From contig JAPLXU010000011.1 in the NCBI GenBank assembly GCA_026395915.1, forward strand, positions 15,688 through 79,687: a DNA stretch of 64,000 nt, written 5' to 3'. A model generated the notes under the pieces. That model did no database searches, was not told where the DNA came from, and saw only the letters and a program-made list of their open reading frames with translations. Made by a program: the position numbers and the translations under genes. Positions within the stretch are counted from its first letter, which is position 1; each line of letters opens with the position of its first letter. The DNA is from Candidatus Nomurabacteria bacterium. Lineage in GTDB: Bacteria > Patescibacteriota > Minisyncoccia > Phycocordibacterales > UBA9973. Shown here one piece after another: positions 2,525 to 59,732 of this stretch.

Positions 2525-3997
2525 TTATTTTAACAAATCTATTAAAATTTGCTTCGTCACTGCCGGATTCGCAGAACCTTTTGTTTCTTTCATTATTTGG
2601 CCAACGAGAGACATAAGCGCCTGCTCCTTGCCACCTTTATAATCCGCAACAACTTTCGCATTCGCCTCGATAATTTTCTGCGCGATTTGTTTGAGCTCGT
2701 TTGTGTCGTTACTTTGAAGCAGTTTTTTCTCTGTCGCGATTTTGAGCGGAGAACCGTCATCAATCACAATAATCGCTAAAATATCTTTGGCAGCGCGGGA
2801 AGAAATTTTATTTTCGGCAACCAAATTTACCAACTCAGAAAAATTATTCGCAGACGGAAGCCTTGCTTCCGTTTTTGCTTTTTTTAGTCCCATAAAATCT
2901 GAGGTTGTATAGTTCGAAGCTATTTTTATTTTTTCTTTGTCTCCCAAGATTTTTGCAACATTCTCGAACCAAGCGCCCAAGAGAGGATCATTTATATAGG
3001 CCTCTATATCTTCGTCTTTGATGCCGAAATCTTTTTTGTATCTAGCGCGCTTCCCCGCTGGCAACTCTGGCAATTCTTTTTTCATCTTTTCCAAATCAAA
3101 AGCTTCGTGCAGTCTTAATTTTGGCAAATCTGGCTCTGGAAAATATCTGTAATCAGCGCTCCCCTCTTTTTTCCTCTGAGAAAAAGTTTTTTGCTTATTT
3201 TCATCCCAGCCACGCGTTTCTTGAATTATCTCCGATTCTTTACCTTCTTCAAAGAGCTGTGCCATGCGATCGAGTTCGTATTTTATGGCTCGTTCGACGC
3301 TTCTAAACGAATTTAAATTTTTCACTTCTACTTTTGTGCCAAGTTTTTTCGGATCAGTTGAAACAGAAATATTCGCCTCAACTCGCATTTCACCCTTTTC
3401 CATATTCGCCTCGGACACGCCCAAATACCAAAGTATGAGCTGAAGCTCTTTTGCAAATCTTGACGCTTTTTCTGCAGCTTCGTCGGAACTTTCCAAAGTG
3501 TGCGGTTCGGTCACAAGCTCCATCAAAGGCACACCAGAACGGTTGAAATCAATCAGAGAATATCCGTCGTTTCGGGTGTTGGACACCTGAAATTCTGGGT
3601 GTCCAACACCCGAAACATGCTTATTGTTGGCCGTATCTTCCTCTAAGTGCACACGAGTTATATCCATTCCGGCTAAATTTCCGCCGGAAACTATCGGATA
3701 TTTGTATTGCGAAATCTGATAACCTTTAGGGATGTCCGGATAAAAATAATTCTTGCGATCAAACTCAGAAAAGTCGGCAATTTTGCCATTAATAGCCAAA
3801 CCAACTTTGATCACATTCTCTATCGCTTTTTTGTTTATAACCGGCAGAGCTCCTGGATGCGCCATACAAACCGGACAGACATTCACGTTCGGCTTTTCCT
3901 CGTCAGGATCGTTCTTGCAAGCGCAAAACATCTTTGTCTGTGTAGCCAATTCAGCATGTATTTCCAAACCAATTGTCGGATAATATTTTTTACTCAT
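2525..3997 (-). CDS. gatB: Asp-tRNA(Asn)/Glu-tRNA(Gln) amidotransferase subunit B
   Basis: 490 aa. GatB N-terminal motifs (YYPTIGLEIHAEL, CPVCMAHPGALP, RVHLEEDTA) and a C-terminal GatB/YqeY domain. It carries an in-frame palindromic insert at 3569-3616. Confidence 0.95.
   Translation of the reverse strand: MSKKYYPTIGLEIHAELATQTKMFCACKNDPDEEKPNVNVCPVCMAHPGALPVINKKAIENVIKVGLAINGKIADFSEFDRKNYFYPDIPKGYQISQYKYPIVSGGNLAGMDITRVHLEEDTANNKHVSGVGHPEFQVSNTRNDGYSLIDFNRSGVPLMELVTEPHTLESSDEAAEKASRFAKELQLILWYLGVSEANMEKGEMRVEANISVSTDPKKLGTKVEVKNLNSFRSVERAIKYELDRMAQLFEEGKESEIIQETRGWDENKQKTFSQRKKEGSADYRYFPEPDLPKLRLHEAFDLEKMKKELPELPAGKRARYKKDFGIKDEDIEAYINDPLLGAWFENVAKILGDKEKIKIASNYTTSDFMGLKKAKTEARLPSANNFSELVNLVAENKISSRAAKDILAIIVIDDGSPLKIATEKKLLQSNDTNELKQIAQKIIEANAKVVADYKGGKEQALMSLVGQIMKETKGSANPAVTKQILIDLLK
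3569..3616. repeat. Perfect 48-nt palindrome (20-bp arms, 8-10 nt loop) embedded in-frame in gatB
   Basis: cgtttcgggtgttggacacc-tgaaattc-tgggtgtccaacacccgaaacg. Encodes HVSGVGHPEFQVSNTRN, an extra loop relative to typical GatB between LEEDAGK and DGYSL. Confidence 0.8.
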
Positions 3998-8412: not shown

Positions 8413-9129
8413 ATGTCTAAAATTATATTTTTCGATACGGAAACTACCGGTAACACAGAAAAGGATTTCTTGTGCCAGATTGCTTACAAAACGGGTGGCG
8501 AAAGTTTCACCGGCCTCTACAAGCCTCCGATAAGAATCCCGCCGGAAGCTTCCGCTGTGCATCACATCACAAACAAAATGGTTGCTGAAAAACCAACTTT
8601 TTATCAAAGTGGCGATTTACAAAAAATAAAAAAACTTTTCGAAGACAAAAACTCCATAGTCGTTGCCCACAACGCTCCTTTTGACCTGGCAATAATAAAA
8701 AAGGAAGGCATTACGCCCGCAAATTTTATCTGCACGCTTCGATTGGCAAGATATTTAGATAAAGAAGAAAAAATCGAGAGGTTCAATCTGCAATATCTGC
8801 GTTATTTGCTTGAAATAGAGGTAAACGCTACGGCCCACGACGCGTTGGGAGACGTCTTGGTGTTGGAAAAACTTTTTGAAAGATTGAAAGACAAAATGAA
8901 AAAAGAAGATAAGTTAAGCGACGAAGAAATATTAAAAAAAATGGTAGAAATATCTTCTCATCCATCGCTCTTGAGAACATTCGGTTTTGGTAAATACAAT
9001 GGCAAAAAAATCGAAGAGGTGGCAAAAATAGACAAAGGTTACCTAGATTGGCTTCTAACGCAGAAACTCGCAAGTGACCAAATAGACGAAGATTGGATTT
9101 ACACTTTGAAGCACTATTTGGGGAAATAA
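8413..9129 (+). CDS. DnaQ-like 3'-5' exonuclease with C-terminal ExoX-like (DUF3820) domain
   Basis: Exo motifs FFDTETTG, VAHNAPFDL, HDALGDV. The C-terminal GKYNGKKIEEV..DKGYLDWL matches the ExoX C-terminal domain. Confidence 0.85.
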   Translation: MSKIIFFDTETTGNTEKDFLCQIAYKTGGESFTGLYKPPIRIPPEASAVHHITNKMVAEKPTFYQSGDLQKIKKLFEDKNSIVVAHNAPFDLAIIKKEGITPANFICTLRLARYLDKEEKIERFNLQYLRYLLEIEVNATAHDALGDVLVLEKLFERLKDKMKKEDKLSDEEILKKMVEISSHPSLLRTFGFGKYNGKKIEEVAKIDKGYLDWLLTQKLASDQIDEDWIYTLKHYLGK

Positions 9130-9245
9130 ATTACCACCTCGCTCTGACTAAAAAGTCAGAGCACTCCTCCTTATCAAGGAGGAGATTCCTAGAAACTCCC
9201 CTCCTTGTGGAGGAGGGGGTTGGGGGTGGTGATTATTTTTTGCAA
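9130..9245. repeat. Array of three G/C-rich hairpins plus T-tract (terminator of the exonuclease gene), containing direct repeat GGAGGGGGTTGGGGGTGGTGATT
   Basis: CTCTGACT-aaaa-AGTCAGAG, CTCCTCCTT-atc-AAGGAGGAG and CCCCTCC-ttgt-GGAGGAGGGG, followed by the G-run and T-tract. Confidence 0.7.
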
Positions 9246-9569
9246 AACTCCATCTATATTTGTATTTATTTCTGTATTAGTAAAACGTAAAACTTTTATG
9301 CTAAGACCTTCAAAAAATTTAGTACGTATCTCGTCATATTTCTGGCTATCTTTTGTAAAATGTTGAGAGCCATCAATTTCTATTGCTAATTTTTTTGTGG
9401 GACAATAAAAGTCTATAATATATCCTCCAATACTATGCTGGCGTCTAAACTTTAGACCTATCTGAGAATTTTTCAGTTTCAACCACAATAAAATTTCTTG
9501 AGGCGTGCTATTGTTTCTTAATTCTTTTCTTCTTGGAAACAATTTTTTGATATTGTTGATTGTTTTCAT
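9189..9569 (-). CDS. DUF559 (Vsr-like) endonuclease domain protein
   Basis: Internal start MKTINNIKK. DUF559 motifs (TPQEILLWLKL, IDFYCP..LAIEIDGSQH, R..FLE-like tail). The ORF-track N-terminal extension is only translation of the G-rich hairpins. Confidence 0.75.
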   Translation of the reverse strand: MKTINNIKKLFPRRKELRNNSTPQEILLWLKLKNSQIGLKFRRQHSIGGYIIDFYCPTKKLAIEIDGSQHFTKDSQKYDEIRTKFFEGLSIKVLRFTNTEINTNIDGVLQKIITTPNPLLHKEGSF

Positions 9570-9574
9570 TGTCT

Positions 9575-9690
9575 TACCCCCCTCCTTAGTTAAGGAGGGG
9601 GCTGGGGGTGGTAATTCCGAATTCGGATCACCACCCCGCCCTTCAGGCACCCCTCCTTTCACAAGGAGGGGTTGTTCATTTAAGCATAAT
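9575..9690. repeat. Second hairpin array upstream of the DUF559 gene, containing direct repeat GGAGGGGGCTGGGGGTGGTAATT
   Basis: CCCCCTCCTT-agtt-AAGGAGGGGG, GGGGTGGTaaTTCCGAATTCGGAtcACCACCCC and CCCCTCCTT-tcac-AAGGAGGGG. Confidence 0.7.
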
Positions 9691-10029: not shown

Positions 10030-11082
10030 ATGAATAATATGATCTGGATAATTTTGGGAATAATTGTAGGAGGTATAATTACATATCTCGTTTTGAATAA
10101 AAAAAAGGAAGAAAAAAAGGACGACCAAAAAGATGTAGGCCTTAATCTTATTTTGACCCAGATAAACGAACTCTCGCGAACAGTCGATAATAAAATTGGC
10201 GAATCTCATAAACAGGTCAATGAAAGTTTGAAATTTCATTCGAGCGAATCGAATAAAATTATTCGAGATGTGACTGAACGACTCACAAGGCTCGATGAAA
10301 CAAACAAGCAAGTCATTTCTTTCGCAGATCAATTGCAAAGCTTGGAAAACATTTTGAAAAATCCAAAACAACGCGGAATTTTGGGAGAATATTATTTAGA
10401 AACTGTCTTGAAAAATGTCTTGCCTCCTGGGAGCTACCAGATGCAATATGAATTCCCTGATAAAACCATAGTAGACGCTGTCGTTTTTGTAAAAGATAAA
10501 ATTATTCCGATAGACTCGAAATTCTCACTGGAGAATTACAATAAAATGGCTGAGGAACGAGACGGAACAGAGAAAAAAAGATTGGAGACAGTTTTCATAA
10601 ACGACTTAAAAAATAGAATTACCGAGACAGCAAAATATATTCAGCCGACACAAGGCACTACGGATTTCGCTTTCATGTTCATCCCTCATGAAGCTATTTA
10701 TTATGATCTGCTTACAAATAAAGTCGGAGCTGGAGATGAAAATGAAAATCTGATTCAGCGAGCGGCGGGAAAATATAAAGTCATCATCACCTCTCCCACT
10801 TCATTTTTGGCATATTTGCAAACCGTCTTGCAAGGTTTGAAGGCCTTGAAAATCGAAGAATCTGCTAAAGAAATAATAAAAAAAGTTGAGGATCTCGGTA
10901 GACATTTAAAATCTTATGACGAATATCACAACAAATTAGGAAACGCGCTTAGCACTGTCGTGAACCATTACAACGCTTCTAATAAAGAATTAAAAAAGAT
11001 TGACAAAGATGTGCTCAAAATTGCCGGTTCTTCGCCGGAACTTTCTCTTTTGGAAATTGAAAAACCAAAAACTGAAGAATAA
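10030..11082 (+). CDS. rmuC: DNA recombination protein RmuC
   Basis: 350 aa. N-terminal TM, long coiled-coil, C-terminal RmuC core (FMFIPHEAIYYDLL). Confidence 0.8.
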   Translation: MNNMIWIILGIIVGGIITYLVLNKKKEEKKDDQKDVGLNLILTQINELSRTVDNKIGESHKQVNESLKFHSSESNKIIRDVTERLTRLDETNKQVISFADQLQSLENILKNPKQRGILGEYYLETVLKNVLPPGSYQMQYEFPDKTIVDAVVFVKDKIIPIDSKFSLENYNKMAEERDGTEKKRLETVFINDLKNRITETAKYIQPTQGTTDFAFMFIPHEAIYYDLLTNKVGAGDENENLIQRAAGKYKVIITSPTSFLAYLQTVLQGLKALKIEESAKEIIKKVEDLGRHLKSYDEYHNKLGNALSTVVNHYNASNKELKKIDKDVLKIAGSSPELSLLEIEKPKTEE

Positions 11083-11631: not shown

Positions 11632-11668
11632 CCAAAAAAACGGAAGCCTTGCTTCCGTTTTTTTGTAT
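11632..11668 (+). terminator. Rho-independent terminator, CGGAAGCCTTGCTTCCG hairpin plus T-tract
   Basis: aaaaaaacggaagccttgcttccgtttttttg. The same 23-nt hairpin sequence also occurs at 2854-2876 inside gatB. Confidence 0.7.
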
Positions 11669-18336: not shown

Positions 18337-18383
18337 AGATAGCGCCTAAAGCCCTATTTTAGATAGGGCTTTAGGCGCTATCT
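18337..18383. repeat. Perfect 21-bp stem / 5-nt loop hairpin at the ftsI 3' end, between ftsI and murF
   Basis: AGATAGCGCCTAAAGCCCTAT-tttag-ATAGGGCTTTAGGCGCTATCT. Confidence 0.75.
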
Positions 18384-20485: not shown

Positions 20486-21385
20486 CTATAAGCGGGATAA
20501 AATCCTCAACTTCGCGCTTCTCGATCTCGGATTATTTTTAATTTCTTCTGCTTTCGCTATGATCGGTTTTTTGTTTACTAATTTTGCTAAATTTTCTTCG
20601 GCTAATTTTTTATAAAATCTTTTCACTATTCTGTCTTCCAAACTATGGAAAGAAATTACCGACATCCTCCCGCCAACTTTTAACGATTCGAATCCTTTCT
20701 CGAGTCCCTCGGAAAGCGCTCCTAATTCATCGTTGACCGCTATCCTTATCGCTTGAAAAGTTTTTGTGGCAAAGTGTATTTTCCATTTTCGAAACTTTGC
20801 CGGAATTGCGTCCTCTATTATTTTTACCAAGTCGAAAGTGGTTTCAATCTTTTTCTCTTTCCTAAAATCCACTATCGCTTTGGCTATCCTGCGAGCTTGC
20901 TTTTCCTCGCCGTAACCGTAAATAATATCTGCTAAACTCTTCTCCTCCCAGGTGTTCACGACATCTAGCGCCGTGACATCTTCTGGAAGAGGATTTTCTT
21001 TCATAGTCATGGAGAGTGGTTCATCTCTCATGAAAGAAAATCCTCGTCCAGAATTCTCTAATTGATCCGAACTCAAACCTAAATCAAAAATAATTCCGTC
21101 AACTTTTCCGACACCTTCCTTTCCCAAAACCTTATCTATATTCCTGAAATTTTCATTTGCGAAAGAAATGTCGCAATCCAAATCCTTGAACTTCTCTTTT
21201 GCTTTTTCGAAAGCACCTTGGTCTTGATCGAGGGCAATAATTTTCACATCCGGAAATCTTTTGCAAATTTCTAGACTGTGTCCCCCTCCGCCAAATGTGC
21301 AATCAATCACCAAAGATTTTGGTTTTAAATCGAGACCCTCTATTGTTTCTTGTAAAAGAACTGTCTTGTGTGCGCTTGTCATCAT
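20486..21385 (-). CDS. rsmH: 16S rRNA (cytosine1402-N4)-methyltransferase RsmH (MraW)
   Basis: 299 aa. HKTVLL, DCTFGGGGHS and ALDQD motifs. Confidence 0.95.
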   Translation of the reverse strand: MMTSAHKTVLLQETIEGLDLKPKSLVIDCTFGGGGHSLEICKRFPDVKIIALDQDQGAFEKAKEKFKDLDCDISFANENFRNIDKVLGKEGVGKVDGIIFDLGLSSDQLENSGRGFSFMRDEPLSMTMKENPLPEDVTALDVVNTWEEKSLADIIYGYGEEKQARRIAKAIVDFRKEKKIETTFDLVKIIEDAIPAKFRKWKIHFATKTFQAIRIAVNDELGALSEGLEKGFESLKVGGRMSVISFHSLEDRIVKRFYKKLAEENLAKLVNKKPIIAKAEEIKNNPRSRSAKLRILSRL

Positions 21386-25991: not shown

Positions 25992-26017
25992 CCACTTGGA
26001 GGCTTTGCCTCCAAGTG
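25992..26017. repeat. REP-like hairpin, copy 1 (cacTTGGAGGCtttGCCTCCAAgtg)
   Basis: 9-bp stem, 3-nt loop, immediately upstream of the RAYT gene. Confidence 0.75.
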
Positions 26018-26030
26018 CTATACTTGAGTT

Positions 26031-26678
26031 ATGTCATTAAGAAAAACCAATTTTGTAGAAGGTGAATATTATCATATCTACAATAGAGGCGTTGATAAGC
26101 GAGAAATTTTTTCCGATAAATTTGACTTAGAAAGATTCTTACAAAGTATGGAAAGTTTCAATACTAAGGATCCTATCGGGAGTTTATATGAAAATAGTTT
26201 TATAAAAAAGAAAGCACTTGGAGGCAAAGCCTCCAAATTGGTTAATTTTGTGGCTTATTGTTTGAACCCTAATCATTATCATTTTATTATTACTCCCCTC
26301 GTAGAAAAAGGAATCGAAAAATTCATGCAACGACTTGGAACAGGCTATACCATGTACTTCAATGAGAAAAATAAAAGATCTGGTTCGCTTTTTCAAGGGA
26401 AATTTAAAAGTAAACACTTAAATTCAAATGAATATTTACTTCAAGCAAGCTCCTATGTAAATTTAAACAACTATGATAAAAATGGGGTAATCAAAAAATC
26501 TTTAAACTCGTCAAGTTGGATTGAATATACTCAACCAACTAATAATGTTGAGTTTTGTGAAAAATCGATAGTGCTTGGTCAATTTGAATCCAAAAAAGAA
26601 TATGAAAAATTCGCACTGGAAACTTGGAGAAATACATGCGAAAGAAAAGAAGAAATAGAAAATCTTGAATTTATTTAA
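26031..26678 (+). CDS. IS200/IS605-like Y1 transposase, REP-associated tyrosine transposase (RAYT)-like
   Basis: 215 aa. YHIYNRGVDKREIF and NPNHYHFII (HuH) motifs. Associated with three REP-like hairpins, one of them inside its own CDS. Confidence 0.7.
   Translation: MSLRKTNFVEGEYYHIYNRGVDKREIFSDKFDLERFLQSMESFNTKDPIGSLYENSFIKKKALGGKASKLVNFVAYCLNPNHYHFIITPLVEKGIEKFMQRLGTGYTMYFNEKNKRSGSLFQGKFKSKHLNSNEYLLQASSYVNLNNYDKNGVIKKSLNSSSWIEYTQPTNNVEFCEKSIVLGQFESKKEYEKFALETWRNTCERKEEIENLEFI
26215..26238. repeat. REP-like hairpin, copy 2 (inverted orientation), in-frame inside the RAYT CDS
   Basis: cacTTGGAGGCaaaGCCTCCAAattg encodes ALGGKASKL. Confidence 0.7.
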
Positions 26679-27440: not shown

Positions 27441-27467
27441 TACTTGGAGGTCTTGCCTCCAAGTGGG
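27441..27467. repeat. REP-like hairpin, copy 3 (taCTTGGAGGtcttGCCTCCAAGtggg)
   Basis: Together with copy 1 it brackets the 1.45-kb RAYT-plus-membrane-gene insert between ftsA and ftsZ. Confidence 0.75.
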
Positions 27468-33059: not shown

Positions 33060-33182
33060 CGAAGTTAAAACTTTCATCTTTCGCAAGAACTCTTTCGCAA
33101 GAACGGTTCTTGCGAAAACTCAAGAACGGTTCTTGCGAAAACTGCGAAAACTTGCGAAAACTCTTGCGAAAACTTACTCCGT
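33060..33182. repeat. Tandem/inverted repeat array of TTGCGAAAACT units (bidirectional terminator region)
   Basis: tttcgcaagaac..ggttcttgcgaaaact x2, then gcgaaaact x3. It lies between the surface-protein stop and the tRNA-Ser 3' end. Confidence 0.7.
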
Positions 33183-59665: not shown

Positions 59666-59732
59666 ATAAGGACAGTCCTTAAGAGAGTTTCCCCAAGGAC
59701 TGTCCTTAATTCTAGCAGAAAAAACCTTTATT

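Follow-up and report, generated by a model that had tools for sequence, protein, structure and literature searches.

A perfect palindrome translated within gatB of a Candidatus Nomurabacteria genome and its resemblance to the REPIN elements of RAYT transposases

How does a perfect 48-nt palindrome come to lie in frame within gatB of an ultra-small bacterium, and what has kept its two arms exactly complementary? The question is raised by a stretch of 64,000 nucleotides from Candidatus Nomurabacteria bacterium (assembly GCA_026395915.1, contig JAPLXU010000011.1, positions 15,688 to 79,687 of the forward strand), referred to below as the window and numbered from its first letter, in which the palindrome occupies positions 3569-3616 of the gene for GatB. 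According to their descriptions, repetitive extragenic palindromic (REP) doublets forming hairpins, or REPINs, lie outside genes and occur mostly in Proteobacteria. What is encountered here is a REPIN look-alike in ultra-small bacteria of the Candidate Phyla Radiation (CPR), which is translated in essential genes, recurs at the same loops and has remained perfect past the saturation of synonymous sites. On balance, the palindrome is considered to be a REPIN-like selfish element that is probably associated with a Y1 transposase system resembling the REP-associated tyrosine transposases (RAYTs) and persists in a permissive loop of GatB.

The inverted repeat, which had been pointed out by a first-pass annotation of the window, is real and extends exactly from 3569 to 3616. 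The left arm (3569-3587, GTTTCGGGTGTTGGACACC on the plus strand) is 100% complementary to the right arm (3598-3616, GGTGTCCAACACCCGAAAC on the plus strand), with 19 nt in each arm and a 10-nt spacer between them (3588-3597, tgaaattctg on the plus strand and cagaatttca on the coding strand). The annotation had given arms of 20 bp around an 8-nt loop; their perfection was correctly recognized, their length was not, since positions 3568 (c) and 3617 (a) provide no twentieth base pair. As read from the sequence, each arm harbors a smaller, REP-like palindrome of 13 nt, namely GGTGT-TGG-ACACC at 3575-3587 in the left arm and GGTGT-CCA-ACACC at 3598-3610 in the right arm. The unit, denoted type A, has the core GGTGT-TGG-ACACC and the extended form CGGGTGT...ACACCCG. 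Because the unit centers TGG and CCA are complementary to each other, the two units represent an inverted doublet and not a tandem duplication.

Such an arrangement is indeed far from chance, as had been claimed. By our own arithmetic about 4e-6 perfect 19-bp stems with a loop of up to 16 nt are expected per 64 kb (64000 x 17 / 4^19), and in 100 shuffles the expected number of matches to the arm with up to three mismatches is 0.00. At the same tolerance no type-A arm match other than the two arms themselves is found in the window. The strand is calculated to fold with -38 kcal/mol (z = -5.6) if treated as RNA and with -24 kcal/mol (z = -6.3) if treated as DNA. None of the Rfam 15 families matches the hairpin at its gathering threshold; the top match, mir-223 (26.1 bits compared with a threshold of 57), is that of a generic hairpin resembling a miRNA precursor. 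Hairpins of this kind can disturb PCR, sequencing and assembly.

The host gene gatB (2525-3997, minus strand) encodes 490 amino acids in an intact reading frame. Its product is assigned to GatB by Pfam (GatB_N 2e-101, GatB_Yqey 4e-32), is 100% identical to the GatB of an NCBI Candidatus Nomurabacteria metagenome-assembled genome and has GatB from T. maritima (3AL0_B, 1e-114) as its best relative of known structure. In agreement with the first-pass annotation, the element is in frame: its 48 nt (3569-3616, minus strand) are read as 16 codons, which specify the peptide VSGVGHPEFQVSNTRN after His127, between ...LEEDTANNKH and DGYSLIDFNR, where relatives have DRGD. Many of the closest relatives have 476 residues with the sequence H-DRGD-FS, and the net gain is 14 residues instead of the 11-12 estimated previously. 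The insert sits in the catalytic cradle domain of GatB beside the HLEED motif. In the AlphaFold model (mean predicted local distance difference test score, pLDDT, 75.9) residues 122-154, located between the strands 111-120 and 157-163, have values below 50, and T. maritima GatB differs in length over the same stretch. An extra surface loop, as proposed by the annotation, is a reasonable, if tentative, description of this stretch, which has low pLDDT between predicted strands and varies in length in solved GatB structures. The 16 residues are plausibly a passenger peptide in a tolerant, disordered loop, where their presence would be neutral.

The same loop was compared among relatives by aligning the 120 closest GatB clusters (75-82% identity) and by inspecting 160 gatB loci drawn from genome and metagenome collections. 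In the alignment, length variation at the insertion point is confined to the segment between NNKH and [FY]SLIDFNR. About half of the clusters read H-DRGD-FS (476 residues), while the remaining ones have loops of 4-25 residues, i.e. roughly 3-20 more than the DRGD-F form, which belong to several unrelated-looking types. The DRGD loop is taken as ancestral because the most distant relatives share it. Of 172 close GatB sequences, 82 possess the ancestral loop D-x-G-x-[FYH] and 73 carry inserts, while in 17 the loop is short and altered.

At the DNA level the loop carries perfect hairpins of at least seven sequence types across related lineages. Where DNA is available, 16 of the 18 distinct inserts that exceed the ancestral loop by at least 10 residues are hairpins of 11-22 bp, and the base pairs summed over these long-insert hairpins amount to 309 Watson-Crick pairs, no G:T pair and two mismatches. 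Examples are the hairpins of loci L013 (arm TTTCCCACATGTCAGACATGTG, 6-nt loop), L014 (AATTACAGACGTTGGACGTC, 10 nt), L071 (CCCGAAGTCAGACTTAGGGGA, 3 nt), L087 (GCCCCCAGGTCGGACCTGTGGG, 2 nt) and L124 (CCCACAAGTCAGACTTGTGGG, 5 nt) as well as L289, in which arms of 26 bp enclose a single nucleotide. Each of the arms is itself a small palindrome, as in L013 (CACATGTC-A-GACATGTG) and L071 (AAGTC-A-GACTT). Together with the copies at other loci and the palindrome-flanked RAYT-like gene described below, these hairpin types support the suspicion of the first-pass annotation that a family of in-frame palindromic insertions is involved. The annotation had further reasoned that orthologous loops of the same length with no palindrome would indicate an ancient loop that became palindromic by chance; all six orthologues with a loop of this type and length retain a perfect palindrome of 14-21 bp.

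The loops turn over rapidly in some comparisons and recur in others. GatB pairs that differ by 5-9% in protein sequence can have wholly different loops between identical flanks (P0101, G type, and P0090, DRGNF; P0079 and L086; P0073, E type, and P0074, D type), and the same insert type is also met in lineages that are about 20% apart. This turnover needs repeated insertion, exchange of loops between lineages, or both. When the insert is masked, a neighbor-joining tree calculated from 271 GatB sequences takes the shape of a star at their 75-82% identity, and therefore does not distinguish one gain from many; nearest neighbors agree in their loop state in 101 of 154 cases. Inserts of this kind can mislead protein alignments and phylogenies of marker genes.

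Type A itself is old. It is common to L082, L161, L162, L163, L164 and L165 at an identical position and in an identical frame of gatB, and fourfold degenerate sites between the type-A gatB genes are saturated (0.22-0.44 identity). Nevertheless, the 48-nt hairpin is 77-96% identical among five type-A genes, and the spacers all point the same way and conform to the consensus c[ag]ga[ag]attca. Where the arms vary, they do so on both sides (GTTTCG/CGAAAC versus CTGTCG/CGACAG versus TTCGCG/CGCGAA). In L161 a change of GG to AA is matched by CC to TT in the opposite arm, and the arms of L165 differ at five positions (one triple and two singles), again on both sides. In an analysis of nine type-A/B hairpins 96.5% of the cells are paired, compared with 31-41% in slid controls; two-sided change is seen in 15 of 19 pairs and one-sided change in none, a level which is reached by 0 of 500 shuffles. 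The complete lack of wobble intermediates points to complementarity at the level of DNA and not to a selected RNA helix. Since the synonymous sites are saturated while the arms have stayed perfect through two-sided changes, the type-A insert is not recent, contrary to the hairpin-mediated insertion of recent date considered by the first-pass annotation. Decay is observed as well: in the gatB gene of L098 a deletion of 18 nt between CAGG repeats has removed the 3' arm, and that of L166 retains one type-A unit only. As a singlet, the unit is present in L166, in L098 gatB and in L163 (4159-4171).

Copies of the gatB elements are also found elsewhere in the same genomes, as seen in a scan for perfect palindromes in 2.4 Mb, comprising the window and 166 loci. 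In L098 a type-A element with the arm ACTTCGGGTGTTGGACACC forms an in-frame nested doublet in rsmH (coordinates 43-89), where it encodes TSGVGHRDSRCPTPEV directly before the VDG...DLG motif; gatB of this locus, 10 kb away, has retained half of a type-A element. Second copies of their own gatB elements are present in L085 (at 16051), in L159 (at 7770 and at another gatB site, 10588) and in L068 (at 4065 and at 10582-10644). In all four loci the second copies are located within about 20 kb. More generally, 1.3% of hairpin pairs within a genome share a 9-mer, compared with 0.16% between genomes, which corresponds to an eightfold difference. The window contains 15 GC-rich perfect stems of at least 8 bp, compared with 0-4 in shuffled sequences, and carries three small families of repeated hairpins. 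In L289 (5793-5837) a nested doublet with 22-bp arms is situated in frame in a gene for an FAD-linked oxidase. A viral origin was considered and dropped: two scans of IMG/VR gave single type-A 14-mer matches per contig, consistent with chance, and the doublet AGGTCAGACCT...AGGTCTGACCT had no match in these scans.

The candidate for a mobilizing enzyme is encoded 22 kb from the gatB element, between ftsA and ftsZ. This gene (26031-26678, plus strand, 215 amino acids) is the only one among the open reading frames of the window with a Y1_Tnp domain according to Pfam (29.5 bits, cut-off 23). The best NCBIfam match of its product is the REP-associated tyrosine transposase NF047646, with 27.7 bits below the cut-off of 80. 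The RAYT-like protein displays the motifs YHIYNRG, the HUH motif NHYHFII, a tyrosine motif and SSYVNLN. It has 5028 homologues at E values of up to 1e-5, which are abundant in Nomurabacteria and Paceibacteria and of which several are named RayT by JGI. REP-like palindromes accompany the gene. The first (25993-26017, CACTTGGAGGC-ttt-GCCTCCAAGTG) ends 14 nt before the start codon (13 nt between), the second (26218-26236, TTGGAGGC-aaa-GCCTCCAA) is found in frame inside the gene, within the residues ALGGKASK, and a third copy (27442-27464, ACTTGGAGG-tcttg-CCTCCAAGT) follows downstream.

An orthologue in L287, 75% identical, occupies the same slot between ftsA and ftsZ and is flanked by the same palindrome ACTTGGAGGC. 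This agrees with vertical descent of the gene together with a conserved palindrome, a behavior that has been described for RAYTs (bioRxiv 10.1101/2021.07.10.451892). Y1 homologues in L028, L109, L062 and L068 are flanked by lineage-specific palindromes; in L028 and L109 the palindrome of the respective lineage is also present inside the Y1 gene at an offset of about 186 nt, as in the window. The only direct connection of a Y1-flanking unit with a gatB insert comes from L068, where the palindrome beside the Y1 gene (ATATCGAAGTC-N-GACTTCGATAT; next to the start codon it reads TAAATATCGAAGTCAGACTTCGATATTTA) is the same as the arms of the doublet that lies in frame in gatB at 10582-10644. By analogy, the type-A unit may be moved by a Y1 enzyme and may belong to a specific RAYT. 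The pentamer TTGGA recurs in 22 unique hairpin arms, about threefold over background by a rough estimate of our own, which is only suggestive of a head motif; the top pentamers enriched in hairpin arms stem from terminator-like hairpins with A-runs and C-runs. Proximity of the RAYT-like gene was also considered as the cause of the gatB hot spot and discarded: only seven of 166 loci have the gene at a distance of up to 10 kb from gatB, and only five, all of distant lineages, have it directly adjacent, lineages in which site-1 inserts (those in the loop after His127) are rare, and in the window the distance is 22 kb.

Apart from site 1, at least two further positions of gatB are used by palindromes. 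A second loop, after window residue ~214, contains doublets in L068, L159 and L136. At the third site the window has a small perfect palindrome (2854-2872, ACGGAAGC-ctt-GCTTCCGT on the plus strand) which encodes TEARLP and leaves the length of the protein unchanged. The flanking motif could be located in 44 lineages, of which 16 have a perfect palindrome with a stem of 7-13 bp and varied sequence at this site. L112 and L083 carry the RAYT-cognate ACTTGGA[GA]GC here, L163 (4159-4171) carries the type-A unit, and between the window and L164 the loop is flipped. The core of the window's site-3 palindrome is shared with an intergenic, bidirectional terminator-like hairpin at 11633-11665 (CAAAAAAACGGAAGC-ctt-GCTTCCGTTTTTTTG). 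In RsmH the loop before VDGIIFDLG carries inserts in roughly a dozen of 120 homologues, and hence the hairpin inserts are not limited to gatB.

Further short GC-rich loop inserts of GatB are SAKGGPASGW after window residue 300, PEGKSTSDGAG near residue 355 and PAGKPSVSNGAG after residue 29 (loci L009, L082 and L014; proteins P0016, P0065, P0069, P0114 and others). Judged by eye and at the peptide level only, these could be back-translated to small stem-loops such as a hypothetical TCCGCC-AAA-GGCGGA. In rsmH of the window (20981-21053, minus strand) an inverted repeat of 24 nt, perfect except for a single mismatch, joins the conserved segments NSGRGFSFM and MKENPLPE. A recent template-switch patch was envisaged at this place and withdrawn, as MKENPLPED is the common form of the clade in the RsmH alignment and no insertion is present; the repeat could be the trace of an old templated event, or codon use could have produced it by coincidence.

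In the explanation favored here, the element would be built like a REPIN, from a small palindromic unit that is present twice in inverted orientation and a 10-nt spacer, and would belong to a population of short palindromic repeats in Nomurabacteria and Paceibacteria genomes that encode a single, syntenic RAYT-like Y1 (HUH) transposase. In such gene-dense genomes the copies that survive in essential genes would be those that keep the frame, contain no stop codon and fall into surface loops that tolerate them, and the GatB loop after HLEEDTANNKH may be one such place. Once placed, the element would be long-lived, with its arms kept complementary either by selection on the DNA hairpin or by recopying from arm to arm, and the extra 16 residues would be a passenger peptide in an intact GatB.

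The resemblance to REPINs is based on their layout, in which two REP units, short palindromes themselves, stand in inverted orientation together with a spacer (PMC3337134; bioRxiv 10.1101/2021.07.10.451892), and on the compensatory changes that are common in their hairpins (PMC3116915). Likewise, the elements described here are inverted pairs of palindromic units with a spacer that fold into near-perfect hairpins, the stems of which are maintained by compensatory changes; singlets occur as decayed remnants, and a syntenic Y1/HUH gene, apparently in single copy, is flanked by lineage-specific palindromes. There are nevertheless clear differences. The gatB element measures 48 nt with a 13-nt unit, compared with about 100 nt for REPINs. 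REP classes have a conserved GTAG or CGTC head (PMC3733652), neither of which is present in the type-A arm or in the palindrome flanking the RAYT-like gene of the window. Furthermore, the host is a CPR bacterium, and its RAYT-like protein scores under the NCBIfam cut-off for RAYTs. In the literature library that was searched, no paper joins RAYTs or REPINs with Patescibacteria or CPR.

Several observations weigh against a REPIN-like element at gatB. REPINs are almost exclusively extragenic, whereas the gatB element is inside a translated coding sequence and other members are within rsmH, the FAD-oxidase gene and the RAYT-like gene itself. Classical REPINs are present in hundreds of copies, whereas the apparent copy number here is low, with type A present once in the 64-kb window. 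The palindrome flanking the RAYT-like gene of the window (CACTTGGAGGC) is not the type-A unit and shares only TTGGA with it, and in the window and the fetched loci no RAYT flanked by type-A units was found. Neither a target-site duplication nor a shared flank motif was detected in 29 inspected copies, and the insert alleles are not simple insertions into DRGDF, as neighboring residues are replaced too. At site 3 and in L163 (4159-4171) native sequence has been replaced at constant length, which looks more like templated conversion than transposition. Finally, palindromes per kb are about sevenfold more frequent in gatB than in other coding DNA of the fetched loci (own count), and the repeated use of identical sites is not predicted for an element that inserts at random.

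The main rival explanation dispenses with a transposase and is regarded as rather unlikely. Template switching, in the form of quasi-palindrome correction or fold-back copying, would make, extend and perfect the palindrome, ectopic templated patch conversion between hairpins would copy it to other loci, and the RAYT-like gene would be an unrelated neighbor. Quasi-palindrome correction according to the Ripley model, as studied in E. coli, is a local mutational process and not an element. It would yield what is seen at gatB, namely perfect arms, two-sided changes and an absence of one-sided changes and wobble intermediates, all of which follow from copying one arm from the other, and it allows replacement at constant length as found at site 3 and in L163 (4159-4171). 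The nested palindromes with complementary centers, the spacer of L164, which looks re-templated from its own outer arm, the loop flip between the window and L164 at site 3, the deletion derivative of L098 ending at short direct repeats and the lack of target-site duplications are in line with this explanation as well. However, a local process cannot put an identical sequence of 17-23 nt into genes that are several to ~10 kb apart, as in L098, L068, L085 and L159, and leaves the identical units at distant loci unexplained. Neutral conversion of the arms predicts a neutral rate of change, whereas type A is 77-96% conserved despite saturated fourfold sites. The association with Y1 genes is not accounted for either, and the repeated pairing of lineage-specific palindromes with them would be a coincidence.

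Selection on a nucleic-acid structure at gatB would be a different answer to the second part of the question, the structure being either an mRNA stem for ribosome pausing or stability, or a DNA or RNA site for a protein such as the RAYT-like enzyme; the hairpin would then be kept for its function and would not be selfish. Compensatory change is strong, conservation exceeds the neutral level, the stem is very stable (-38 kcal/mol), gatB has at least three recurrent palindrome sites of which site 3 is constant in length across many lineages, and co-option of RAYT-REPIN systems by their hosts has already been proposed (PMC3337134). Yet about half of the close relatives do without any site-1 insert, relatives that are only 5-9% apart in GatB protein differ in presence or type of the insert, and the same kinds of elements are found in unrelated genes and in spacers. 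For a selected RNA helix, the absence of G:U pairs in 311 stem positions and of one-sided changes would be unusual, and the Rfam matches are sub-threshold only (26 bits compared with 57). Selection on structure is accordingly regarded as improbable. Least credible of all is selection at the protein level for an extra GatB loop with an incidental palindrome, or an artifact of assembly. The insert keeps the frame, contains no stop codon and is positioned by the HLEED motif of the catalytic cradle domain, as protein-level selection would have it; from type to type, however, the peptides are wholly different and the perfect palindrome in the DNA is constant, which is not an outcome of selection on a peptide, and the loop is predicted to be disordered. 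An assembly artifact is excluded because the element, with variations, recurs always in frame in independent assemblies from NCBI, JGI, ENA and Logan.

The arms could act as the inverted repeats of a classical miniature inverted-repeat transposable element, but direct repeats are absent from the flanks of all 29 copies. Palindromic repeats in frame have their classic precedent in the Rickettsia palindromic elements (RPEs), repeats of 100-150 bp (Ogata et al. 2000, as summarized in PMC10969869). According to that summary these, too, are palindromic selfish repeats that reside in frame in housekeeping genes and add a tolerated peptide to an intact gene product; they are imperfect, decaying palindromes of about 100-150 bp, in contrast to the perfect 48 nt observed here, and they are not known to pair with a Y1 transposase or to re-use one loop with different types. 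A relationship in sequence between RPEs and the gatB element is not expected. The gatB element works like an RPE and is, by its size, not a member. The PARCELs (palindromic amphipathic repeat coding elements) of Mollicutes are likewise translated palindromic DNA repeats in genes of bacteria with small genomes, though, as far as PMC2996958 characterizes them, they are longer tandem coding repeats in surface proteins that give rise to amphipathic helices, whereas the gatB element is a single hairpin in a housekeeping enzyme.

If the REPIN-like reading is true, REP-RAYT systems would have a wider range of hosts and a wider habitat than is known, and some of the small insertions seen in loops of GatB and RsmH would have one explanation. 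The orthologous gatB alleles, hundreds in number and either with or without a hairpin, would then constitute a natural data set for measuring gain, loss and homogenization of arms. A more far-reaching proposal, to be regarded as speculative and on present evidence rather doubtful, is that of an ancient REP-RAYT-type system in Paceibacteria (CPR) whose palindromes are found mainly inside coding sequences, with gatB offering at least three recurrent sites, one of which holds the RAYT-cognate unit at constant length in many lineages. Should this hold, REPIN-like replicators would have colonized protein loops in genomes nearly devoid of spacers, and the palindromes may be functionally coupled to their hosts, for instance by a Y1 enzyme acting on hairpins in essential genes, instead of being mere passengers.

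Of the other palindromes in the window, a nested doublet at 59667-59708 (TAAGGACAGTCCTT, a 14-nt spacer and AAGGACTGTCCTTA) also has arms which are palindromes themselves, the units being AAGGAC-A-GTCCTT and AAGGAC-T-GTCCTT. It begins 25 nt past the murJ stop codon (24 bases between), and a single base separates its end from the start codon (ATG) of a gene for an ABC transporter; an initial reading of this element as in-frame was dropped in view of its intergenic position between the two genes. The doublet may occlude the ribosome-binding site of the ABC-transporter gene.

At 9141-9672 repeated CCCCTCCTT...AAGGAGGGG hairpins, which in each case precede TGGGGGTGGT, enclose an open reading frame for a DUF559 (endonuclease-like) protein (9189-9662). 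The arrangement resembles a small repeat-flanked cassette and has genes for an ExoX-like exonuclease (8413-9129) and rmuC (10030-11082) as neighbors. Just 3' of the gene for an 878-residue surface protein, positions 33077-33175 are composed of tandem and inverted repeats based on CAAGAAC-G-GTTCTTG and CTTGCGAAAAC; the palindrome GCAAGAAC-S-GTTCTTGC is also present four times in the distant locus L121. The longest perfect stem of the window belongs to a hairpin at 18337-18383, located between the genes for a penicillin-binding protein and a Mur ligase, with a perfect stem of 21 bp and a loop of 5 nt; it overlaps the stop codon of the former gene and lacks a T-run.

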